Part shown: positions 11,758 to 57,202 of the stretch, piece by piece
Layout: every line of letters starts with the position of its first letter
Numbering within the stretch: the first letter of the stretch is position 1
Assembly (NCBI GenBank): GCA_021818465.1
Contig: JAKAEA010000001.1
Location: 235,662-299,661, forward strand
Length of the DNA: 64,000 nt
Source of the DNA: a bacterium
GTDB taxonomy: Bacteria > Patescibacteriota > Minisyncoccia > Phycocordibacterales > JAKAEA01
Direction: 5' to 3'
Program-made: the position numbers and the translations under genes
Notes under the pieces: model-generated
What the model was told of the DNA's origin: nothing
Database searches by the model: none
The model's input: only the letters and a program-made list of their open reading frames with translations

Positions 11758-13350
11758 ATGCCTCAAAAAATATTCAGACCACCAACTCTTGTTGAGTTTT
11801 CTCATAAGGAATCAAAAATCCAAAAAACTATTGCCGATAAACAACTTGATTTTATATGTCAAAAAGATAGCGCTTTTTGGAGTCAAGAGCGCAAGAAACA
11901 ATTATTTTCTCTTTTTAAAACTTCGGTAAAAACTCTACCAGCGTATCAAGAATTTCTTACTCGAGCTGGTGTTGATTATAAGAAAATTACTACGTTCGAA
12001 CAGTTTTCGAAAACTGTTCCGCCAGTTAGTAAGGATAATTATCTCAGAACATATTCTTGGAAACAATTATGCGCCCCCGGCGCACTCACGGGTCAATCGT
12101 TAGTGTTGACATCAACTTCTGGATCGACAGGAAAACCCTTTTATTTTCCTCGTAATGGTATTCTCGATACTCAATCGTCGCTCTATCATCAAATGTATTT
12201 GCGTAATAGCGGTATTGATCCTGATAAATCAACGTTGGTGATTGTGTGTTTTGGTATGGGTGTGTGGATTGGCGGTCTTATCACGTATCAAGCCTTTAAA
12301 TATATTGCTGAGCGAGGTCATCCAATGACTATTATTACGCCCGGGGTCAATAAAAAGGAAATTTACGAAGCAATGAAAAATGTGGCACCGAATTACGATC
12401 AAATAATTCTTTGCGGATACCCGCCGTTTATGAAAGACGTGATTGATGAAGGGAAAGCTAATGGTGTTGAGTGGCGTGATTTTAATATTAAAATGAGTTT
12501 TGCGGCTGAAAGTTTTTCGGAAAAATTTCGCGATTATCTTCTTCGTAAGACTGGTATGAAAAACCCTTATCGTGACACGGCCAATGTGTATGGCAGTGCT
12601 GATCTTGGCACGATGGCTATGGAAACACCGATCGCTATTCTTATTCGCCGCTTGGCTCTTCGAAACAAAAAAATCTATAAAAAACTTTTTGGAGATGCTA
12701 GTCGTCTACCGACTCTTGCCCAATTTATTCCATCATTTGTTAATTTTGAGGCGATTAATCGAAATATTTATGTCAGCGGTGACAATGTGTTGCCATTAGT
12801 TCGTTATCAGATTGGTGACAATGGTGGTGTTCTTGATTTTGCCGAAGTAGAGGAGGTTTTTAGTGAGGCGGGAGTTAACTTGCGCGCTAAGGCGGCGGCT
12901 ATTGGTATTACCGATACCATCGCCGAATTACCATTTGTCTATGTTTATGAACGGACCGATCTCTCTACAAAGCTTTATGGGGCGATTATTTATCCGGAGT
13001 ATGTAAAAGCCGGTCTTCAACATCCGACTCTGGAAAAATATATCACTGGCAAATTTACGATGTTTACGCAATATGATAAAAAACAAAACGAATATTTAGA
13101 AATAAATGTTGAATTAAAGCCCGGTATTGTTGAGTCAGACTGGCTTAATGAGAAACTTTTAAAGTTCGTTGTAGAATTTCTTTTAAATCGAAGTGCTGAG
13201 TATAAATATCTTACTGATATGCTTGGGACGCGCGTAAGTCCTAAAATTGTTTTTTGGCCTTATGAACATGCGACTCATTTCCAGGTTGGTATTAAGCAAA
13301 AGTGGGTAAAGAAGAATGATCAAGAAAAACGTAAAAATTTTAAAAAATAG
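11758..13350 (+). CDS. adenylate-forming enzyme, phenylacetate-CoA ligase (PaaK)/CapK/F390-synthetase-like
   Basis: P-loop-like TSTSGSTGKPFYFP typical of the PaaK-like ANL subfamily. 530 aa. Confidence 0.6.
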   Translation: MPQKIFRPPTLVEFSHKESKIQKTIADKQLDFICQKDSAFWSQERKKQLFSLFKTSVKTLPAYQEFLTRAGVDYKKITTFEQFSKTVPPVSKDNYLRTYSWKQLCAPGALTGQSLVLTSTSGSTGKPFYFPRNGILDTQSSLYHQMYLRNSGIDPDKSTLVIVCFGMGVWIGGLITYQAFKYIAERGHPMTIITPGVNKKEIYEAMKNVAPNYDQIILCGYPPFMKDVIDEGKANGVEWRDFNIKMSFAAESFSEKFRDYLLRKTGMKNPYRDTANVYGSADLGTMAMETPIAILIRRLALRNKKIYKKLFGDASRLPTLAQFIPSFVNFEAINRNIYVSGDNVLPLVRYQIGDNGGVLDFAEVEEVFSEAGVNLRAKAAAIGITDTIAELPFVYVYERTDLSTKLYGAIIYPEYVKAGLQHPTLEKYITGKFTMFTQYDKKQNEYLEINVELKPGIVESDWLNEKLLKFVVEFLLNRSAEYKYLTDMLGTRVSPKIVFWPYEHATHFQVGIKQKWVKKNDQEKRKNFKK

Positions 13351-14008
13351 TATAGTTGTCATAACTGGCGCTGGCCGGGGTTTGGGAAAATCGCTTGTTG
13401 CCGCTTTTACTAATCGTGAAGCACATGTTATTGCTTCTGATATTGATTCACGTCAATACAAAACTGATGTTCGAGATGAGGTTGAAGTAAAAAGATTAGC
13501 TGATGAAATTGTTAAAAAATTTGGTCAAATAGATATTTGGATAAACAATGCCGGTATTTGGTTACCGCGGATGTCAGTTCAAGAATTAGATATGAACCGT
13601 GTTCGGGAGATTTTTAATGTTAATGTCTTCGGTACAATACATGGCACTCGAGCCGCCCTGAAAATTATGGAGCATCAAGGAAAGGGAACTATCGTCAATA
13701 TTGTTTCTACTGCCGCGCTCGTTGGTCGACCGTTCTTTGCAACCTATTCGGCGAGCAAGCATGCTGAAAAAGGTTTTACGGATTCTGTGCGAGAAGAGTT
13801 GAGAGAGCAAGGAAGCAATGTCTCCATTATCGGTATTTATCCCGGTGGTATAAAAACCAACCTTTTTGATGAGAAAAAACCTGATGATTTTGCTAAGTAT
13901 ATGGAGCCAGAATTTGTCGCGGAAGCCATTGTTGCGAACTTAGAAAAGGAAAAGCCGGAACCCGACCTCATTCTTAAACGACCAGGTCAAGATATCAAAT
14001 TTAAATAG
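13316..14008 (+). CDS. short-chain dehydrogenase/reductase (SDR)
   Basis: VVITGAGRGLGKSL (TGxxxGxG), NNAGI, and the YSASK catalytic YxxxK. Confidence 0.8.
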   Translation: MIKKNVKILKNSIVVITGAGRGLGKSLVAAFTNREAHVIASDIDSRQYKTDVRDEVEVKRLADEIVKKFGQIDIWINNAGIWLPRMSVQELDMNRVREIFNVNVFGTIHGTRAALKIMEHQGKGTIVNIVSTAALVGRPFFATYSASKHAEKGFTDSVREELREQGSNVSIIGIYPGGIKTNLFDEKKPDDFAKYMEPEFVAEAIVANLEKEKPEPDLILKRPGQDIKFK

Positions 14009-14093
14009 CTAAAATTTAGTCACACCTTGGACGGTGCATGTACTCTTTTAAAGATGGTAGTATAGGGGTATTAGTAAATTCATTTTTAATACT

Positions 14094-15272
14094 ATGCTTT
14101 CACTTCATGAGATGTTAGAGAAAAAAGATGACGTTGGTGCAAAACCGATATTTTTTGATTTGTCCCAAACTGCCGATCAAAACAAACTCTCCGCACTTTT
14201 TGCTGACAATAAAATCCAACACGTTTCCGATGATTTTGAAGAACAGCACCAAGAATTATTTGCAGTCAGAAATCCGACGATTGTCTATACGGCGGGTTTC
14301 AAAGAAAAATTTAAAAAATATTACGAGGAACTAAAAACTCAAAAGCCTCTTCAGGAACATGGCCATTGGGTCTATTTTCCATGGCTCTCGAAAATTGTTC
14401 ATATTTTAGCTGAAGAAGATTTTTTTATTGTTCGAACTGCACGCAATAAAAATCTCATTAATACCGAGGAGCAAGAAAAATTTCACAATGCCAAAATAGG
14501 TATTGGTGGTTTATCGGTTGGTTCAAGCGTCGCCTACGCTATGACTCTTCAAGGTGGGCCGAAACACGTCAAACTTGCCGATATGGATCGTCTTGCCCTT
14601 TCCAATACGAATCGCATTCTTTCTGGTGTTGATAATCTCGGAATGCTCAAAGTAGAAATGGCCGCTCGTTTCATGTATCAGATTAACCCATATATGGAAA
14701 TAGAACTTTACCCCGACGGCCTGACTCCTGAAAATATTGAAGGGTTTTGCAAAGACTTAGATGTAGTGATTGATGAGCTTGATAATTTATCGGTGAAATT
14801 TTTGATTCGTGAACAAGCCAAAAAATATAAAATACCAGTCGTTATGGCTGCTGATAATGGTGACAATGCTGTAGTAGACGTTGAACGGTATGATTTAGAG
14901 CCGGATATGCCGTACTTTCATGGTCGTATGGGTGATGTCTCATACGACATGCTCACAAAATTAGATAAATTCGGTATCGGCAAAATGATCACCAAGCACG
15001 TTGGTCCGGAAAATGTGACCGAACGAATGCAGCAATCGCTCATGGAGATGGGGAAGACTATTGTCTCTTGGCCCCAACTTGGCGGCGCGGCTTTGATTAA
15101 TGGCGCGGCTGTGGCTTATTGTGTGCGAAAAATTCTGAACAGTCAGCCACTGGAGAAAAATCGCGCCCTTGTGTATTTGGACGAAAAACTTATTCCGACC
15201 TGGAACGAGCCGACCGAAATAAAAAAACGTGCCGCTATCGCCGATGGTTTTCGGAAAATTTTTGGGTTGTAA
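14094..15272 (+). CDS. E1-like ThiF/MoeB-family adenylyltransferase with ~130-aa N-terminal extension
   Basis: Rossmann motif GIGGLSVGS and the E1 signature DMDRLALSNTNR (DxDxxxxSNLNR). There are no CxxC zinc motifs. The N-terminal extension is unassigned. Confidence 0.7.
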   Translation: MLSLHEMLEKKDDVGAKPIFFDLSQTADQNKLSALFADNKIQHVSDDFEEQHQELFAVRNPTIVYTAGFKEKFKKYYEELKTQKPLQEHGHWVYFPWLSKIVHILAEEDFFIVRTARNKNLINTEEQEKFHNAKIGIGGLSVGSSVAYAMTLQGGPKHVKLADMDRLALSNTNRILSGVDNLGMLKVEMAARFMYQINPYMEIELYPDGLTPENIEGFCKDLDVVIDELDNLSVKFLIREQAKKYKIPVVMAADNGDNAVVDVERYDLEPDMPYFHGRMGDVSYDMLTKLDKFGIGKMITKHVGPENVTERMQQSLMEMGKTIVSWPQLGGAALINGAAVAYCVRKILNSQPLEKNRALVYLDEKLIPTWNEPTEIKKRAAIADGFRKIFGL

Positions 15273-15288
15273 TTATTTTAGTTTAATT

Positions 15289-16092
15289 CTATTTATTATT
15301 TTTTTGAGAATTTTTACCCAGTCTCTTAGCTTCCTCCCAGGCGAGATCAAAAACACTCTTCATAACGTCTGCCATTTCTTTACTTTCAACACTTATCGCT
15401 ATACCCCCGTGGTCGTGAGAAGCATAGGCAATTTTGTTATCGTAAATGACTAAATCGGCGGATATTTTGTATTTGTCTGGTGGTATGAGTATTGGTTTGT
15501 CAAGATTTTTAGTGTTATATCTAAGTAAATTTCGATTAAACTCATTATCGGGATGGATACCATGCATTTTGATATTTAATTGGTATCTTTTTTGTAAATA
15601 TTGCGGCATATAGTCACCCATGATTTCTCTAAGATTTTCTGTGGCGGAAATCACCCGCATCAATTTTTCTTTTGTTTTAAGAGTCTCTTCAAAAGCGCTA
15701 ATTAAACCTTCTTTTCCTTCAAATACTCGAACTTTCGGTTTTTGTTTAGTATCTTTATGTAAGGCTTTTAGTTCTGGTAATATTTTCTCAATTTTATTTA
15801 AAATATTTTCTTGCTTATCCACCATATTTTCGGCGGTATGAAGTAAAATATCAGGAGAAGTGGCGATATACTGTCGAACATCCTTATCGTCTGAGATACT
15901 TACTAATCCTTTTTTTATAAGAGATTCAAGTACGACATAAATTGTGCTTCTATTGATTTCGGTATGTCGAGAGATTTCTTGCACGGGAGCAATTTCAAGT
16001 TCAAGCAACGCTACGTAAATACGTGCCTCTTTTTCATTAAGACCAAATTCTATAAGAGTTTTAGTAAGCATAGTGTTAATGGGTGTTAACAA
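15289..16092 (-). CDS. TrmB-family transcriptional regulator
   Basis: N-terminal wHTH (LIEFGLNEKEARIYVALLELEIAPVQEISRHTEINRSTIYVVLESLIKKGLV). Divergently oriented from the small peptide gene. Confidence 0.7.
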   Translation of the reverse strand: MLTPINTMLTKTLIEFGLNEKEARIYVALLELEIAPVQEISRHTEINRSTIYVVLESLIKKGLVSISDDKDVRQYIATSPDILLHTAENMVDKQENILNKIEKILPELKALHKDTKQKPKVRVFEGKEGLISAFEETLKTKEKLMRVISATENLREIMGDYMPQYLQKRYQLNIKMHGIHPDNEFNRNLLRYNTKNLDKPILIPPDKYKISADLVIYDNKIAYASHDHGGIAISVESKEMADVMKSVFDLAWEEAKRLGKNSQKNNK

Positions 16093-16143
16093 TATTGTTA
16101 TAATTTACGTTTCGAAACTATTTTTGTTGTTATAGTATAACAA
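16088..16143. promoter_or_regulatory. two palindromic operator-like sites sharing a TTGTTATA half-site in the divergent intergenic region
   Basis: AACAATATTGTT at 16088-16099 (extending to TTGTTATAA) and TTGTTATAgTATAACAA at 16127-16143 are perfect inverted repeats. They lie between the TrmB regulator and the peptide gene. Confidence 0.4.
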
Positions 16144-16345
16144 CACAATAGAAATAATACAAGCTACTAGCGAATTAGTGCGGTGATAATTTTTTTTAGC
16201 AGTAGTTGTTTATAGGGAAAAAGTATTGTCTCGTGATTGTTATATGTTTACAACATTTTTGAAGGGTTTATTTTTTAGTTAGATAAAAAGTTGGAGTGCG
16301 TGATTTGTATATCAACTCATTGAAAAAAGAAAGGAGGTGATTATC

Positions 16346-16450
16346 ATGGCAAACCAACCAACAGGCCCCCATGGGGGTTCGTCGGGTGGCACTAGTACCG
16401 GCAACAATGGTTCGGGCGGTGGCTCTCACGGTGGTCCTCGAGGAGGATAA
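16346..16450 (+). CDS. 34-aa Gly/Ser-rich small peptide (MANQPTGPHGGSSGGTSTGNNGSGGGSHGGPRGG)
   Basis: Not in the ORF track (<60 aa). A perfect RBS (AAAGGAGGTG) lies 7 nt upstream of the ATG, and a rho-independent terminator follows immediately. No Cys. Ser/Thr sit in a Gly-rich context. Confidence 0.55.
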   Translation: MANQPTGPHGGSSGGTSTGNNGSGGGSHGGPRGG

Positions 16451-16471
16451 TTTCTCGTCGGACTATAGTAG

Positions 16472-16505
16472 AATAGGGTGAGAGTTTTCTCACCCTATTT
16501 CTAAT
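16472..16505 (+). terminator. rho-independent terminator after the small peptide gene
   Basis: AGGGTGAGA-gttt-TCTCACCCT, a 9-bp perfect stem followed by a T-rich tract. Confidence 0.7.
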
Positions 16506-16519
16506 TTATATAAAAATAT

Positions 16520-16789
16520 ATGTCTAATAAAAATAATATAAAATATCCTGTTGTTTTTATTATCTACAGAGATATCGTTCTCTGGGAGAGTCAGGTTAAG
16601 ATTAAAAGTGGTTTTCCTGTACATATTTTTCACGCAGTTGGTTTTTTAATTGAAGATAATACTGATAATTATGTTATTGCCCGAGAGATTGTGACAAATC
16701 AAAATGACGATCTCCGAGGGGCAATGACTATTCCCAAAGAAACAATCTTGCATTTTGAAAAGATCAAAGAAAATAAAATAATTTCTTAA
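16520..16789 (+). CDS. hypothetical protein (89 aa)
   Basis: ORF inside the AT-rich island with no recognisable motifs. Confidence 0.35.
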   Translation: MSNKNNIKYPVVFIIYRDIVLWESQVKIKSGFPVHIFHAVGFLIEDNTDNYVIAREIVTNQNDDLRGAMTIPKETILHFEKIKENKIIS

Positions 16790-16811
16790 AGATTAGCATA
16801 TTGTTATTTTT

Positions 16812-17309
16812 ATGAAATTAAAATCTACTCTCACCAATCGTTCAGGCAAAATATTGTCTGTTATTTATTCGGAAAAAGATCCTCTCATTGGCTTAGAAGG
16901 GAAAATTTTGCAAGGCGTTCACGCTTTTTGTTTTTGGGGAAATCACATGGTATTGGTGCATCATCCTAAAAGTGGGTGGATGCCACCGGGTGGTGGCATT
17001 GAACGTAATGAAAATTATATAGAAGCGACGTTACGAGAAGTTAAAGAGGAAACAAATATGAAAGTCACGTATCTAAAAACAATCGGTTTTCAGGATACAT
17101 ATGAGCCGGGGAAAGTGGTCCGACAGGTGCGGAATTTTTGTTTAGTTGAACCGTGTGGAGATTTTACATCAGATCCCGATGGTGAAATTATGGAAATTAA
17201 ACTTATTAGACCGGAAGACTATAAACAATATTTTGATTGGGGCGAAATTGGCGATAGAATTATGACGCAAGCGTTGAAATATAAGAGTAAAATAGCCGGG
17301 ATTTTATAA
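16812..17309 (+). CDS. NUDIX hydrolase
   Basis: Nudix box GGGIERNENYIEATLREVKEETN (Gx5Ex7REUxEExGU). Confidence 0.8.
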   Translation: MKLKSTLTNRSGKILSVIYSEKDPLIGLEGKILQGVHAFCFWGNHMVLVHHPKSGWMPPGGGIERNENYIEATLREVKEETNMKVTYLKTIGFQDTYEPGKVVRQVRNFCLVEPCGDFTSDPDGEIMEIKLIRPEDYKQYFDWGEIGDRIMTQALKYKSKIAGIL

Positions 17310-17381
17310 ACTTCTTATATTATTTGGTCTATCTAAGCTTATGAGATATAATCTTAATATCGAAAGTTATTGTGTTTTTCT

Positions 17382-18416
17382 ATGAAAGAAAACTATAAAG
17401 CTTGGCAAATAGATCTGAACTCTTTCAAAGAGCTTAAAACTGAAGTTGAGAGATTAAAATTTTTCTTAAAATTTGCCGTATTAGCTCCTTCGAGTCATAA
17501 TTCACAACCTTGGTTATTTTCAGTTTCTGAAAATAGTATTCAAGTTTATCGAGCAAAGTTTCGTTCTCTTCCTATCGCTGATGTAAATAATCGTCAACTT
17601 TTTTTAAGTATTGGTTGTGCTATTGAACATATTGTTATTGCTGCTCAGTATTATGGATATAGCACTAATGTAGAATATAAGGACGATTTAATTAACCCCA
17701 ATCTTGCTGCTATTATCACGTTTAGAAAAGAAGAAAAAAAAATTCAAACAATCGAAAGTTTACGTTATATCCAAGCTATTCTAAAAAGAAAGACAAATCG
17801 TGGTAAATACAAAAAAGAAAAAATTTTAGAAAATTTATTGGAAAAAATAGAAAAGTTAAAAACTCCCAATCTTAATATATATGTGATTAGTGATACTGAA
17901 AAAATATCTAGACTTGCCGATATTGCCGTTCAAGCTTCTATTGAATCAATGGTTGACGATAATTTTCGTTTAGAACTCTCTCATCATCTTAAACATAATT
18001 TAACAAAATCTAAAATTGGCATGCCTGGTTTTAGTTTGGGTTTGCCGACGCTGGTTTCATTTTTATTACCACATTTAATGAAACAATTTAATTTGGAACG
18101 AGTAGCTCAAAAACAAAACGAGAAATTATTTAAAAAACATACTCCATATATAGTTATATTAACGACTAACGGTGATTCACGAAAAGATTGGCTAGAAGCT
18201 GGCCGAGTATTTGAACAGATTACCCTTACTCTAACGCACGATAATATTAGCGTGTCTCCTTGGGGTGCGCCAATTCAAATAGGAGAATTTTACAGAAATA
18301 TTCAGAAAATTCTTCACACTAGTTTTCGGCCACAGATGTTTTTTCGAGTAGGGTATGCTCAAAAAAAAGCAAGATTTAGTCCTAGATTAATAGTTGAAGA
18401 TGTTCTGGATAAATAG
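17382..18416 (+). CDS. nitroreductase-family protein, Acg/tandem-nitroreductase-like
   Basis: APSSHNSQPW motif and a ~340-aa length consistent with the double nitroreductase fold. The ATG at 17382 is preferred over the TTG at 17370. Confidence 0.6.
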   Translation: MKENYKAWQIDLNSFKELKTEVERLKFFLKFAVLAPSSHNSQPWLFSVSENSIQVYRAKFRSLPIADVNNRQLFLSIGCAIEHIVIAAQYYGYSTNVEYKDDLINPNLAAIITFRKEEKKIQTIESLRYIQAILKRKTNRGKYKKEKILENLLEKIEKLKTPNLNIYVISDTEKISRLADIAVQASIESMVDDNFRLELSHHLKHNLTKSKIGMPGFSLGLPTLVSFLLPHLMKQFNLERVAQKQNEKLFKKHTPYIVILTTNGDSRKDWLEAGRVFEQITLTLTHDNISVSPWGAPIQIGEFYRNIQKILHTSFRPQMFFRVGYAQKKARFSPRLIVEDVLDK

Positions 18417-52361: not shown

Positions 52362-53096
52362 TTATGTGGTTTTAAGATGTTTAATTCTTTCAAAAATAAG
52401 AATGAGGGCAATGACACCAATCCAGATAAAATACAGAGAATCTATTTCTGAGCCGCCTATGCTGTATAGTATAGATAAATCAAGAGCGGCGTGCAAGACA
52501 ATAGCGGTGCATAACCCAAGTGTGGTATAGAAAGTTCGTTTGGCTGGTGGTTTATGAAAACCGAGCGCTAGAGCGTAGCCAACGGCTGCAGAGGCGATGA
52601 TGTGGATAACTGTTGCGCCAAAAAAGCGATTGATACCAAGAGCGATGGCAAGATGGAAATTGCCGTGAATAATTGGGCTGATAATAAAAAAAGCATTTTC
52701 CACGGCGGAAAAACCTAAAGCAGCGGTAATCATATACATCATGCCGTCAATAGGTTCATCGTTTTCTGCTCGCCAGAGAGTGGTAATGTAGGCCGCGGAA
52801 TATTTTATTGCTTCTTCGATAGCGGCCCACACCAGAATCGTGAGAGGAATTGTCGTGAAGATGTTGCTGGTAAGACTTTCTAAAGGTAAAGCAACAAAAA
52901 CCCCAAGCGCACCACCGATAAAAGCGTAGGTAACAAGTTTTGCTGGTTCAGGGTGCTTGTCTTCGTGTTCCCATATCCACAACCACACTAAAACTGGGCC
53001 AATACCTGCAGCAATAGCAAGTAAGGCAGATAGGGCAAGATATGACGGATAATTGTGTATGCCGTTAAGAAATTGGGCAACTAGTGGAATGGCCAT
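52362..53096 (-). CDS. PrsW-family intramembrane protease-like membrane protein
   Basis: Polytopic protein with an AAIEEAIKYS (EExxK) motif and conserved His residues in TM helices. Confidence 0.45.
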   Translation of the reverse strand: MAIPLVAQFLNGIHNYPSYLALSALLAIAAGIGPVLVWLWIWEHEDKHPEPAKLVTYAFIGGALGVFVALPLESLTSNIFTTIPLTILVWAAIEEAIKYSAAYITTLWRAENDEPIDGMMYMITAALGFSAVENAFFIISPIIHGNFHLAIALGINRFFGATVIHIIASAAVGYALALGFHKPPAKRTFYTTLGLCTAIVLHAALDLSILYSIGGSEIDSLYFIWIGVIALILIFERIKHLKTT

Positions 53097-55312
53097 GATG
53101 CTATAAGAAGAAGTTCAGGTTCAGATGTTTTTAAATTTTTTGGTAGAGATTCCCAAATTGCTTCAGTTACGAACGGCATAAAAGGGTGTAGAAACTTAAG
53201 AAGAGCAACGAGAAGGTAAGCGAGTGTCCAGCGAGCACTGTGTGCCAAGCTTTCATCGCTTTGCGCGATTGCTTTCTTGCTTTCCTCAATGATGTTGTCG
53301 GCAAAGGTATGCCAGAAATAATGATACAATTTTTCAGCAGCGAGATACAAGCGATAGTGTTCGATATCGGTGGTAATGTCTTGAGAAAAATTTTTAAATT
53401 CTTGTAGGTCGGATTCATTTTTTGCTGAAAGTTGTGGTTTAGTTTCTAAGGATACATCGGCGGTATTTTCCAAAACAAATCGTGTGGCGTTCCAAATTTT
53501 ATTGGCAAAATTTTTGTAGCCGCGGATTTTGTCCTCAGAAAGTTTACTGTCGTTACCGGGGCCGGTGCCGATCAAGAGGGAAAGACGCACGGCGTCAGCG
53601 CCGTATTTTTTCGTCATCTCTAGTGGATCAATAATATTGCCGAGTGATTTACTCATCTTGCGACCCTTGCTGTCGCGCACCAAGCCGTGCAGATAGACGG
53701 TGTGGAATGGAATAGTGTCGAGCAGATACCCACTCATTAGAATCATGCGGGCGACCCAGAAAAAAAGAATATCGTAACCAGTCTCTAGTAAACTGGTGGG
53801 GTGATAAGTTTTAAAATCCGGAGTTTGATTTGGCCAGCCAAGCGGGGAAAATGTCCAAAGACCCGAAGAAAACCAGGTATCTAAGGTGTCGGGGTCTTGT
53901 GTCCAATCATCGCCTTGTGGTGGCTCTATGTCGCAGTATATTTCCTCTTTCTTGGCGTTTGAACGATACCACACTGGAATGCGGTGGCCGAACCAAATCT
54001 GTCGCGAGATACACCAATCGTGCAAATTTTCAATCCAATTGAAGTAAATTTTTTCAAAACGCTCGGGGATAATTTTGATGCTGCCGCTCGCTACTGCTTC
54101 CCGCATAATTTTCTTAAGTGTCGTTGAAACGCCGTTGCGCGAAAACTCCTTATTGACCGCAACAAACCACTGAAGCTTTGGTAGTGGTTCTATAATACCA
54201 CCACTGCGCTCGGCAGTGGCGAGATTGTGGGTAATAGTTTCTTCTTTTTCTACAAGTTCGTTTTGCTTCAACCAATCTACAACAGCTGCGCGTGCCTCGG
54301 TAACTTTTTTGCCGGCAAGCAGGGGTGCGGGCACGGTCATTTTGCCAAATTCGTCAATGACTTGTTTCAGCGGCAGTTGGTGGCGCTGAGCAATTTCCCA
54401 GTCAGTGTGACTATGAGCCGGTGTGACACCAACAGCGCCAGTGCCGAATGCTTGATCAACTGCCGTATCAGCCACAATTTTCAAGTGGATTTTTTCACCG
54501 ACAAAATCAACATCATATTCTGTGCCGATAAATTTTTTATATTTTCCCTCTGGATGTACCGCCACGGCGGTGTCGCCGACTTTTGTCTCCGGACGGGTGG
54601 TGGCTATAGGAATAGGAAAATCTTTTGCATATTTGAACGTATAGAGTGTTGTTGAGGCCTCAGTGTACACAATTTCGTCGTCGGAAATGGTCGTTTGACC
54701 TTTGGGGTCCCAGTTGACAATGCGATAGCCACGATAGATAAGACCGTCGTCGTACATTTTCTTAAAAGCGGTACGCACGGCGCGCGAGCGCGGCTCGTCG
54801 AGGGTATAGGCCTCGCGACTCCAATCAACCGAAGCGCCCATACCGCGGATTTGGTCGGTGATGGTATCGTGACTTTCTTGGGCAAATTGGTGTACACGCT
54901 TTAAGAATTCTTCACGGCCGAGATCGTGGCGGCGAATTTTCTCTTTTTCAAGGTTTTTTTCTACGCGCGACTGGGTGGCGATGGCAGCATGATCAGTGCC
55001 AGGAAGCCAGAGAGTGCGCTTACCACGCATTCGCTCAAAACGAACCAAACTGTCTTCAATAGCGAGCATGGTGGCGTGGCCAATATGCAGTGTACCAGTG
55101 ACGTTAGGTGGTGGCAAAACTATAGAAAATATAGGCGCATCACTGCGGGTTACGCCTTTTTGCACGCACACGTCGGGATTAAAAAAACCACTGTCTAGCC
55201 AGGTTTTATATATGTTTGATTCAGTTTCTTGAGGATTGTAGGGTTTGAGAAATTTTTTCGGAATACTGGGTTGCATGAGAGAAATACTAGCAAAAAATGG
55301 CCGTTTGTGCAC
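53081..55312 (-). CDS. valS: valyl-tRNA synthetase (short form lacking C-terminal coiled coil)
   Basis: HIGH motif (PNVTGTLHIGHA), KMSKS, and editing-domain blocks. The GTG at 55312 directly follows the tsaD stop. An alternative ATG lies at 55276. Confidence 0.9.
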   Translation of the reverse strand: MHKRPFFASISLMQPSIPKKFLKPYNPQETESNIYKTWLDSGFFNPDVCVQKGVTRSDAPIFSIVLPPPNVTGTLHIGHATMLAIEDSLVRFERMRGKRTLWLPGTDHAAIATQSRVEKNLEKEKIRRHDLGREEFLKRVHQFAQESHDTITDQIRGMGASVDWSREAYTLDEPRSRAVRTAFKKMYDDGLIYRGYRIVNWDPKGQTTISDDEIVYTEASTTLYTFKYAKDFPIPIATTRPETKVGDTAVAVHPEGKYKKFIGTEYDVDFVGEKIHLKIVADTAVDQAFGTGAVGVTPAHSHTDWEIAQRHQLPLKQVIDEFGKMTVPAPLLAGKKVTEARAAVVDWLKQNELVEKEETITHNLATAERSGGIIEPLPKLQWFVAVNKEFSRNGVSTTLKKIMREAVASGSIKIIPERFEKIYFNWIENLHDWCISRQIWFGHRIPVWYRSNAKKEEIYCDIEPPQGDDWTQDPDTLDTWFSSGLWTFSPLGWPNQTPDFKTYHPTSLLETGYDILFFWVARMILMSGYLLDTIPFHTVYLHGLVRDSKGRKMSKSLGNIIDPLEMTKKYGADAVRLSLLIGTGPGNDSKLSEDKIRGYKNFANKIWNATRFVLENTADVSLETKPQLSAKNESDLQEFKNFSQDITTDIEHYRLYLAAEKLYHYFWHTFADNIIEESKKAIAQSDESLAHSARWTLAYLLVALLKFLHPFMPFVTEAIWESLPKNLKTSEPELLLIASWPFH

Positions 55313-55313
55313 T

Positions 55314-56468
55314 TTATAGTGTGAGATTACCAGCGGCTTTGATGGTTGTGGCCGGTTGGGCGCCGCTGAGGATAGAAATATACGCGGCGGCGGCGATCAT
55401 GACGGCATTGTCAGTAGAAAGCGTGACGGGGGGAATATAAAGGTTGAGGTCAGGATAATTCGCGGCAAGTTTTTCAAAAGCGTCGCGAATGTGAGCATTG
55501 GCACTGACGCCGCCGGCGATTACCAGTGTGCGCGGCTCGTACGCGGCAATAGCATGGGTGGTTTTCGTTATGAGTACGTCGGTGACGGCGTCTTCAAATT
55601 CGCGTGCCACCTGGCGGCGTACATCGTCGGTCATGTTGTCAAATTTTTTAAGCAAATAGAGCACAGCAGTCTTGAGGCCGGAAAAAGAAAAAGCAAAATC
55701 TCCGGAATCAAGCATGGGACGTGGTAGAGAAAATTGCGGGGTGCTGTTTGCGTCACGCGCTTCTTGGGCCAGACGTGAGATTGCCGGTCCGCCAGGATAC
55801 GGTACGTTGAGTAAGCGTGCCACTTTATCAAATGCTTCGCCGACGGCGTCGTCACGTGTCTGACCGACGACCTTGTGATTTTGCCAGTCTTTGGCGACGA
55901 CAAGCTCGGTGTGGCCGCCGGAAATAAGAAGCGCCAGCACAGGGAATTGAAAAGTTGTGCCGGCGGTAATCAGTGGTGAAAAAAGATGTCCGGCCATATG
56001 GTTTGTGGGATAGACGGGTATGTGCCAGATTTCGCCGAGAGCTAAAGCGAAATTAATACCAACCCAGAGTGCTGGTTCCAGACCTGGTCCAGCAGTGACG
56101 GCAATAGCGTCAATAGCCGGTCGGTCTATATCCGCACTATGTTTTAAAAGCATATCAGCTAAACCGGTTTCTCGTTCCAAAATCTTTTTTATTTTTTCTT
56201 CATTAAAATTTGATTTTTCTTTTATTTGTTCTATAGCTGCGTCATGTACAGCTTTTTTTAAAAGTGGTACAAGATTTTTTGCGTGTTCGCGTTTGGCGAG
56301 AGCGGGGAAGACACCACCATACGCCGCATGAATTTTAACTTGCGAATAGAGTGCTTGACTACGCACGTTAAACCTAACAGATTCGTGTGTTGAATCTAAT
56401 GTGCCACGTGCTTCCACAACGCTCACCGCTGTTTCATCGCAGCTCGTTTCAATACCGAGGATAATCAT
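55314..56468 (-). CDS. tsaD: tRNA N6-adenosine threonylcarbamoyltransferase
   Basis: MIILGIETSCDETAVSVV... plus the Kae1/TsaD metal-binding H-x-x-GH motif (HMAGHL). Confidence 0.85.
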   Translation of the reverse strand: MIILGIETSCDETAVSVVEARGTLDSTHESVRFNVRSQALYSQVKIHAAYGGVFPALAKREHAKNLVPLLKKAVHDAAIEQIKEKSNFNEEKIKKILERETGLADMLLKHSADIDRPAIDAIAVTAGPGLEPALWVGINFALALGEIWHIPVYPTNHMAGHLFSPLITAGTTFQFPVLALLISGGHTELVVAKDWQNHKVVGQTRDDAVGEAFDKVARLLNVPYPGGPAISRLAQEARDANSTPQFSLPRPMLDSGDFAFSFSGLKTAVLYLLKKFDNMTDDVRRQVAREFEDAVTDVLITKTTHAIAAYEPRTLVIAGGVSANAHIRDAFEKLAANYPDLNLYIPPVTLSTDNAVMIAAAAYISILSGAQPATTIKAAGNLTL

Positions 56469-56469
56469 T

Positions 56470-56545
56470 TGGTCGGGATGCCGGGATTCGAACCCGGAGT
56501 CACACGTACCCGAAACGTGTATGTTAGCCGTTACACCACATCCCG
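56470..56545 (-). tRNA. tRNA-Pro (anticodon CGG)
   Basis: The reverse complement folds with acceptor CGGGATG/CATCCCG, anticodon stem CACGT/ACGTG, loop TTCGGGT, and an encoded CCA. Confidence 0.85.
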
Positions 56546-56571
56546 TGGTCGCGCCGATTTTTTATCGTGCG

Positions 56572-56646
56572 GTGGGCGATACAGGGCTCGAACCTGTGAC
56601 CTTGTCGACGTCAACGACACGCTCTAGCCAACTGAGCTAATCGCCC
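56572..56646 (-). tRNA. tRNA-Val (anticodon GAC)
   Basis: The reverse complement is GGGCGATTAGCTCAGTTGGCTAGAGC... with anticodon stem TGTCG/CGACA and loop TTGACGT. Confidence 0.85.
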
Positions 56647-56770
56647 AATAAAAACACAATGACCTAACCAAAACAACTAATCGCCCAATAAAAACACAAT
56701 GACCTAACCAAAACAACTAATCGCCCAATAAAAACACAATGACCTAACCAAAACAGCTAATCGCCCGATA
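56637..56770. repeat. 40-bp exact tandem direct repeat, 3 full copies plus a partial fourth
   Basis: Unit CTAATCGCCCAATAAAAACACAATGACCTAACCAAAACAA starts at 56637, 56677 and 56717. A degenerate partial copy starts at 56757. The first 10-13 nt of each unit copy the 5' end of the adjacent tRNA-Val. Confidence 0.85.
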
Positions 56771-56839
56771 GAAAATGATTCTATCAGAAAAAGCGCCGGA
56801 ACTCCAGCGCTTTTTCTTGTAACCAATTAGGCAAAAAAA

Positions 56840-57202
56840 CTATTTTGTCACTGTTGTTGGTGTTGGTGTTGTGGGCGCATTATTGACAGGTACTTGATTT
56901 CCGACAGAGCGATAGTAATAAAATGGCATTGGACCATTGTTTTCTCCCATCATGCTCCAACCAAAACCATGACCCCAGCCGCCATAGCCATAGTCGCCGT
57001 AGCCCCCAAGAGCGGCGTGTAATTCACCGAGCATAAAACCACCCCAGAAAATCACGATCGCTAAAATAATAGCCACAATGATACGAATAATAAAGAAACC
57101 GTGCCATTTCCCCCATCGGTTGCCGCAATATGCGCAGTAACCATTTTTATTAGTGCATGCAACGCACTTACATCCTTCCGGATGATTAGTATTTGCTTCC
57201 AT
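56840..57202 (-). CDS. hypothetical membrane protein with N-terminal Cys-rich (zinc-ribbon-like) segment and Gly/aromatic-rich tail
   Basis: CKCVAC...CAYCG, one TM helix, and GGYGDYGYGGWGHGFGW. Confidence 0.4.
   Translation of the reverse strand: MEANTNHPEGCKCVACTNKNGYCAYCGNRWGKWHGFFIIRIIVAIILAIVIFWGGFMLGELHAALGGYGDYGYGGWGHGFGWSMMGENNGPMPFYYYRSVGNQVPVNNAPTTPTPTTVTK

Follow-up and report, generated by a model that had tools for sequence, protein, structure and literature searches.

In Escherichia coli, the tRNA genes tyrT and tyrV are accompanied by 178-bp repeats (the rttR/tpr region), which are arranged as tandem direct repeats abutting the tRNA and each contain a terminal segment of that tRNA. 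In strain K-12, the 19-nt 3′ end of tRNA-Tyr (AATCCTTCCCCCACCACCA) recurs three times downstream of tyrV at a spacing of 178 bp. No mobile element is known to be involved in these repeats. RttR is encoded by one repeat unit of the tyrT operon, and the repeat units are therefore part of the tRNA operon (PMC3318445).

Repeats of this kind share features with several other described systems. Bacterial VNTRs (minisatellites) consist of identical units lying head to tail, with perfect short direct repeats at the unit boundaries and a differing copy number. Partial tRNA pseudogenes derived from tandem duplication have been described for organelle genomes, in which a truncated tRNA copy neighbours the gene it came from. 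Att-site duplications in tRNA genes and islands inserted into dusA likewise involve direct repeats, here of the end of the tRNA or gene. Integrases that target tRNA genes reportedly replace the 3′ part of the gene and not the 5′ part, as Williams is said to have described in 2002. The dusA islands leave a remnant 5′ end behind (PMC4482086). Our literature searches returned no description of a repeated 5′-end tRNA fragment in a bacterial leader.

The locus described here is part of the window, that is, the whole 64-kb stretch of DNA that was analysed, and carries 40-bp repeats next to a tRNA-Val(GAC) gene. Compared with the tyrT/tyrV repeats it is a mirror image: in E. coli it is the 3′ end of the tRNA that has been copied, with the repeats downstream, whereas the window has copies of the 5′ end in the leader, upstream of the tRNA. 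The existence of the E. coli arrangement thus indicates that such arrays arise without mobile elements. The unit is considerably shorter (40 bp versus 178 bp), has neither an ORF nor an Rfam match while a tyrT/tyrV unit encodes an sRNA and a small peptide, and has, unlike its E. coli counterpart, single-copy homologues in distant relatives. No homology to the tyrT repeat, rttR, or tpr was found, and the likeness is one of analogy. Unlike a typical VNTR, the unit is not anonymous DNA; it is a conserved piece of leader, derived from the tRNA, within a tRNA/mRNA transcription unit. It differs from the att-site and dusA systems in that the locus has no element or inter-repeat DNA and no integrase among the ORFs at 39.7-64 kb, and from the organelle pseudogenes in that it comprises only about 23 nt of the tRNA, belongs to a bacterial leader, and has been conserved in several lineages.

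Tandem Repeats Finder (TRF) detected a single strong tandem array in the 64-kb window, at 56637-56775 (period 40, 3.5 copies, 96% matches, score 255), and together with a direct reading of the minus strand this confirms the 40-bp tandem repeat abutting tRNA-Val that an earlier note on this DNA had pointed out. Three units of 40 bp (A, B, and C, Table 1) are arranged head to tail on the minus strand at 56647-56766, immediately 5′ of tRNA-Val(GAC). The first 12 nt of this tRNA (GGGCGATTAGCT) are the template for the repeat heads, and the true tRNA begins with GGGCGATTAGCTCAGTTGG. The proposed templating from the tRNA 5′ end is upheld, as each unit is headed by the first 10-12 nt of tRNA-Val. The likeness extends further than the roughly 10-13 nt first noticed, because positions 13-23 of the unit match the D-arm in 7 of 11 positions, and it stops near position 23. 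The copies had been described as identical, which is true for B and C; unit A differs from both at one base (C/T at tRNA position 11, with C11 in A and T11 in B), giving one differing base per 120 (119/120 identity) for the three units. In the phase chosen by the earlier note, the first 10 nt of the "first copy" belong to the tRNA itself, and the "degenerate fourth copy" is no decayed unit but the 12-nt head of unit A together with the native promoter and leader.

The 10-mer GGGCGATTAG occurs exactly four times in the window, always at the tRNA-Val locus, and the 28-mer that completes each unit has three exact occurrences in the window compared with none expected in shuffled sequences; no further copy of the unit was found elsewhere within the 64 kb. 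The 28-nt stretches that would serve as spacers are identical, which excludes a CRISPR array, as had been argued before. No ORF remains open in the array: TAG codons in two frames, in combination with a period of 40 nt (3n+1), shut all of the frames. A further tRNA gene or full tRNA pseudogene was considered and rejected, as ARAGORN and the Rfam tRNA model detect the genuine genes only. TRF also reported a weaker 19-nt sub-period within the 40-bp unit (56651-56755, 5.3 copies, 68% matches), and both halves of the unit hold GRTTAG...TTGG, which suggests older nested duplications or earlier slippage in other registers.

Table 1. Features of the tRNA-Val locus, listed in the direction of transcription with their positions in the window.
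Feature	Position	Strand	Basis or remark
120-aa membrane-protein ORF	57202-56840	minus	upstream of hairpin
Putative intrinsic terminator, GCGCTGG-AGTT-CCGGCGC + T run	56810-56788	minus	read from sequence
Extended -10 promoter-like element, TGATAGAAT	56786-56778	minus	read from sequence
Native leader, CATTTTCTATC (11 nt), between -10 element and first pseudo G1	56777-56767	minus	read from sequence
Unit A (distal)	56766-56727	minus	GGGCGATTAGCT + 28 nt GTTTTGGTTAGGTCATTGTGTTTTTATT
Unit B	56726-56687	minus	GGGCGATTAGTT + GTTTTGGTTAGGTCATTGTGTTTTTATT; identical to unit C
Unit C (proximal)	56686-56647	minus	GGGCGATTAGTT + GTTTTGGTTAGGTCATTGTGTTTTTATT
tRNA-Val(GAC), genuine gene	56571-56646	minus	ARAGORN; Rfam tRNA 65.7 bits
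tRNA-Pro(CGG)	56470-56545	minus	ARAGORN; Rfam; 25 nt downstream of tRNA-Val
tsaD	55314-56468	minus	ORF; Pfam TsaD on source contig
valS	53081-55312	minus	ORF; Pfam tRNA-synt_1 on source contig

The array is embedded in what appears to be a single transcription unit. The hairpin upstream of the array presumably terminates the 120-aa membrane-protein gene and would set the upstream limit of the tRNA transcription unit; the same hairpin is kept in three relatives (L005, L007, and L011). The extended -10 element downstream of it is the candidate promoter of the tRNA-Val - tRNA-Pro - tsaD - valS unit, and equivalent TGnTAnnnT elements are present in L009, L012, L005, L011, and L007. A generic promoter scan left the element unflagged because it has no -35. 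The first pseudo G1 (the first base of the tRNA-like fragment) is separated from the -10 element by 11 nt in L009 as well, and its distance from TGnTAnnnT amounts to 9-11 nt in the window, L009, and L012. Pre-tRNA-Val thus most likely includes the units in its 5′ leader, with transcription presumably running from the -10 element through the array. A perfect 7-bp inverted repeat (GATAGAA-TCATT-TTCTATC, 56785-56767, minus strand) shares bases with both the -10-like TAGAAT and the native leader; it has an operator-like look and is not conserved in L009.

On the downstream side, the ATG of tsaD follows one base past the encoded CCA of tRNA-Pro (56466-56473, minus strand), which leaves no room for a promoter of its own, so that the repeat-bearing leader, the tRNAs, tsaD, and valS would all belong to one transcript. 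There is no space for a Shine-Dalgarno sequence either. The tsaD gene of L022, which has a GTG start, begins 2 nt after the discriminator base of tRNA-Val (2596-2602). Because tsaD starts hard against tRNA 3′ ends, the 5′ end of its mRNA would be made by tRNA 3′ processing and the message would be nearly leaderless, which resembles the "tRNA punctuation" of mitochondria. In L012, a 184-aa gene without a Pfam domain is located on the opposite strand (1249-1803, minus) and splits tRNA-Val from tRNA-Pro-tsaD. A terminator-like hairpin follows tRNA-Val there, and the linkage between tRNA-Val and tsaD-valS is broken while the pseudo-5′ fragment is retained.

Relatives were searched for with TsaD homologues as anchors, which recovered the syntenic locus from nine other lineages; a TsaD scan of the genome_contigs collection added only a locus of 38% identity (L004), which has no tRNAs. 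Three other, distantly related lineages of uncultured bacteria carry one or two copies of the pseudo-5′ fragment some 40 nt in front of tRNA-Val(GAC). L009 carries one copy (GGGCGATTAGCTGTCTTGGTTAGGTCATTGTGTTCCACTAA) followed by the tRNA, and over its first 34 nt this copy is identical to the window unit at 33 positions. L022 also has one copy (GGGCGATTAGCTGTTTTGGCTGATAACGCCAGATTCATT, then the tRNA), whose first 19 nt are identical to the window unit and which is placed in the spacer after tRNA-Glu. L012/L013 show a copy (GGGCGGTTAGGTGTCTTGGTAGACAAAGCACGATTATGAAA), then a second, partial copy (GGTTAGGTGTCTTGGTAGACAAAGCACGAAGTATTCAC), and then the tRNA. The period of the fragment is 38-41 nt in all four lineages. 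Unit A corresponds by homology to the single pseudo-5′ fragment of L009, L022, and L012, and it is probably the oldest of the three units in the window.

The carriers are far apart, as TsaD in the alignment is 73% (L009), 67% (L012), and 56% (L022) identical to that of the window, and they occur in both major clades of the TsaD tree. The region upstream of tRNA-Val is free of the fragment in L005, L011, L007, and L017. A search for decayed remnants in these lineages gave a marginal match in L007 (12/19, p=0.05) and nothing significant in L005 and L017. In L016, L023, and L024, tRNA-Val is not located next to tsaD. Among the tRNA genes of the window and of the recovered loci, tRNA-Val is the only one with an upstream copy of its own 5′ end. 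A comparison of L012, L017, and L022 with the window, L005, L007, L009, and L011 distinguishes two types of tRNA-Val(GAC), with anticodon stems TGTCG/CGACA and CAACA/TGTTG, which follow the two TsaD clades; the first 12 nt are the same in both types, apart from A6G in L012.

Across the four carrier lineages, the fragment has the common motif GGGCGRTTAGsTGTyTTGG, which is composed of tRNA positions 1-12, a GTY replacing CAG at positions 13-15, and then TTGG as in the D-loop. Positions 1-19 show 84-100% pairwise identity between the lineages. For positions 20-39 the identity is 20-50% (80% between the window and L009), and for the 25 nt following the tRNA (the trailers) it is 12-40%. Since the derived GTY at positions 13-15 is common to all four lineages, a single origin of the fragment is indicated; a shared period of 38-41 nt is not what independent scars would produce. 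In L012, G6 is found in both the tRNA and the fragment, a single case of co-variation that is compatible with selection for identity or pairing as well as with local homogenisation.

It could be objected that the fragment is a neutral relic, i.e., a functionless piece of junk in the leader that has persisted by chance and has been kept tRNA-like by slippage or conversion (concerted evolution). The fragment is lost or absent in half of the lineages, it shows no significant conserved secondary structure and no Rfam match, and its expansion in both the window and L012 marks a mutationally active locus, all of which such a relic would account for. However, conversion from the tRNA would overwrite GTY with CAG, and as GTY is kept in all four lineages, this argues against conversion as the cause of the conservation. 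In principle, the adjacent tRNA could renew positions 1-12 and 16-19, so that only positions 13-15 are left as independent evidence. Furthermore, neutral 12-nt direct repeats 40 bp apart should vanish fast, yet the fragment spans lineages with TsaD identities of 56-73%, and the neighbouring non-coding DNA has been randomised in the meantime (12-40% identity). We therefore regard a neutral relic as rather unlikely, though it deserves serious consideration. With moderate confidence, the fragment can be described as apparently old and under constraint where it has been kept; it would be dispensable where it has been lost, because L005, L011, L007, and L017 do without it. Selection on the fragment is suggested by few sequences from the four carrier lineages sampled.

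We infer the following course of events. A partial duplication of the tRNA-Val 5′ end would have created a unit in which positions 1-12 represent the acceptor 5′ strand, followed by a stretch that resembles the D-arm but has GTY in place of CAG at positions 13-15, and by about 20 variable nucleotides. This duplication would be older than the split of the sampled lineages, and four of the eight would have retained the unit, with purifying selection apparently acting on the first 19 nt. In the species of the window, a recent amplification would then have raised the single copy to two or three. Perfect direct repeats of 10-12 nt at the boundaries of a unit, 40 bp apart, make it a textbook substrate for slippage and unequal exchange, and because the 12-nt heads form such repeats, the copy number is expected to rise and fall easily. 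Slippage as the mechanism would also fit the identity of B and C, the single difference between A and B, a difference of one unit between two assemblies (see below), and the independent partial duplication in L012, which together are in line with recent and recurrent expansion. The earlier conclusion that the near-identity of the units reflects recent expansion thus holds; what the note missed is the age of the unit, a single-copy version of which is conserved in other lineages. With near-identical units head to tail and without spacers, the array has the appearance of a VNTR, and it is probably a small one, for which an older 40-nt pseudo-5′ unit of the leader would have served as the substrate of slipped-strand mispairing or unequal recombination.

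A different origin had been proposed in the earlier note, which took the array as a footprint of site-specific integration. According to this proposal, the duplicated 5′ ends are att sites left by a small element that targets tRNA-Val and that may have carried the two small membrane-protein genes as cargo. Such an element would carry an attP of the form ...TTTTTATT-GGGCGATTAGCT-GTTTTGGTTAGG... Direct repeats of a tRNA end are indeed typical for att sites, dusA-specific islands replace the 5′ end of a gene and leave the old one as a remnant (PMC4482086), and in L006/L007 a large serine recombinase gene abuts tRNA-Glu about 0.7 kb upstream of tRNA-Val. In the window, however, the repeats follow each other at 40 bp without any intervening DNA, so there is no kb-scale segment that could be present or absent, and the neighbouring genes are syntenic in relatives that lack the repeats. 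The note had suggested looking for an integrase on the contig, but no recombinase or integrase was found among the ORFs at 39.7-64 kb of the window or among the called genes of the source contig (ftsA, ftsZ, thioredoxin-reductase-like, two small membrane proteins, tsaD, valS, prsW, and hsp20). The sizeable ORFs from 39.7 kb to the end of the window are all housekeeping or unannotated genes and include a TPR protein, MurJ, LepA, DivIC, HlyD/ABC/FtsX, GH18, Hsp20, PrsW, ValRS, TsaD, a thioredoxin-reductase-like protein, FtsZ, FtsA, and others.

The supposed cargo is part of the conserved neighbourhood as well. The two small membrane-protein genes, in which no Pfam domain was detected, are retained together with the terminator in relatives that have no repeat: homologous small genes, the terminator hairpin, and the tRNA order were found in L005, L006-8, and L011, and the order small membrane gene(s) - terminator - tRNA-Val - tRNA-Pro - tsaD - valS - prsW is conserved in L005, L007, and L011. 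The unit has no match in mobile-element collections that could represent an attP. An exact 24-mer and a degenerate 26-mer were searched for in metagenome_contigs, the unit and the pattern of motif plus tRNA-Val start in viral_contigs (IMG/VR), all without a match, and blastn against phages and plasmids gave nothing meaningful. Moreover, independent imprecise deletions of an element would not yield a unit length of 38-41 nt in all four lineages, and the recombinase-bearing relative lacks the pseudo fragment. Taken together, an integrated element is a highly improbable source of the array and can in practice be discarded.

The recombinase gene of L006/L007 (TsaD 73% identical to that of the window by BLASTP) extends over 554-2080, encodes Resolvase, Recombinase, and Zn_ribbon_recom domains, and overlaps with its 3′ end the 3′ 40 nt of tRNA-Glu(TTC); it may represent an element integrated at tRNA-Glu. 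In the window and in L005, a thioredoxin-reductase-like gene is found at that tRNA-Glu position. Elsewhere in the window, the region 12001-18000 has a G+C content of 0.33-0.40 compared with about 0.44 in the remainder, and may be horizontally acquired or otherwise atypical.

The exact TsaD and membrane-protein sequences of the window are also present on GCA_027341405.1 (DAIEME010000001.1, 540 kb) and sister contigs. Over 9.1 kb, GCA_027341405.1 is 100% identical to the window except that exactly one 40-bp unit is missing (C or its twin B). The comparison of copy numbers recommended in the earlier note thus yields three units in the window and two in GCA_027341405.1, with the possibility of assembly ambiguity. 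Related species have one to about two copies of the fragment. A Logan contig from a k-mer assembly (L003, SRR13299515) terminates precisely at the final 31-mer found in unit A only, as a graph with k=31 does if the next unit carries T at position 11.

These differences raise the question of whether the third copy, or even the whole array, is an artefact of short-read metagenome assembly. In favour of this, two otherwise identical assemblies differ by exactly one unit, and three 40-bp units with their flanks are in general longer than a 150-nt read can span. On the other hand, each assembly contains at least two types of unit, A with C11 and B with T11, the point at which L003 breaks off implies the same, and the presence of the same fragment in related species shows that the repeat is real and that the count alone is uncertain. 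An artefact is accordingly possible but doubtful. The repeat thus exists, in at least two types of unit, and the count of two versus three reflects either true heterogeneity or short-read assembly ambiguity. As a caveat for this genome assembly, the copy number of a slippage-prone 40-bp unit cannot be fixed by short-read assemblies.

Several possible functions of the fragment were considered. In a nearest-neighbour model, a fold that uses the pseudo strand is at least as stable as the native fold in all four lineages, which makes strand competition possible and nothing more, as the model ignores tRNA tertiary structure and the order of co-transcriptional folding. The extra 5′ acceptor strands might thus act as decoys that compete for the 3′ acceptor strand of the tRNA and thereby modulate the folding or processing of pre-tRNA-Val, a reading that we prefer among the functional ones but offer tentatively and at low probability. 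Still less likely is its extended form, in which a cis-acting RNA decoy with a disabled D-arm is conserved in a Patescibacteria-like clade and tunes how pre-tRNA-Val folds and is processed at its 5′ end, with the copy number (1, 2 or 3) as a quickly evolvable dial for the supply of tRNA-Val. If this form is true, the fate of the downstream tsaD-valS message might change too, since tsaD and valS have no promoter of their own.

The amplification could alternatively provide tandem promoters, with one sigma-70-type site per unit (TTGTTT, a 17-nt spacer, and TGT-TTTTAT in B and C), and raise the transcription of tRNA-Val or of the whole operon. The C-to-T change in B and C turns CTGTTT into TTGTTT and brings it nearer to a -35 element, and TGn-TTTTAT is located 17 nt downstream of it. 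A generic promoter scan, however, flagged nothing within the array; with the putative -10 ending just 1 nt short of the following G1, the proximal unit would initiate transcription inside the tRNA; and the tail with the -10-like motif is where the unit is not conserved (CCACTAA in L009 and ATTCATT in L022). Tandem promoters are hence quite improbable, and any role tied to the start of transcription is unlikely, because the L022 fragment sits in the spacer after tRNA-Glu.

Searches for other known types of regulatory RNA were negative. No sRNA, ribozyme, or T-box family of Rfam was matched at the gathering score, and only chance-level matches appeared at E up to 10. A T-box leader in particular was discarded, as 56400-56900 gave no covariance match even at E up to 10 and the leader unit is just 40 nt long. 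GUY at positions 13-15 and the UGGU that follows resemble T-box contacts by coincidence, for L022 has UGGC; lying 2 nt apart, they cannot touch both the anticodon and the acceptor end of one tRNA. A hairpin closed by UGU...CA, seen by eye in the four lineages, was dismissed with folding z-scores of -0.4, +1.0, -0.6, and -1.0, and single-unit folding exceeds that of shuffled sequences in L022 only (z -2.5). The possibility that the tail of the unit is a duplicate of the native leader or promoter was likewise abandoned (about 8/17 match in the window and nil in L009).

As a tandem repeat, the array is ordinary. What is unexpected, and modestly novel, is the deeply conserved single-copy mimic of the tRNA-Val 5′ end, which has been kept with its D-arm-disabling three-base change while the surrounding non-coding DNA was randomised. 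The window array forms the 5′-end counterpart to the 3′-end repeats of E. coli tyrT, and a duplicated tRNA end need not signal integration. The mimic is found in an operon setting in which tRNAs and the gene for valyl-tRNA synthetase apparently share one promoter. Should its conservation reflect a function, the mimic would represent a novel type of cis element, situated in the leader of a pre-tRNA and made from the 5′ end of that very tRNA.
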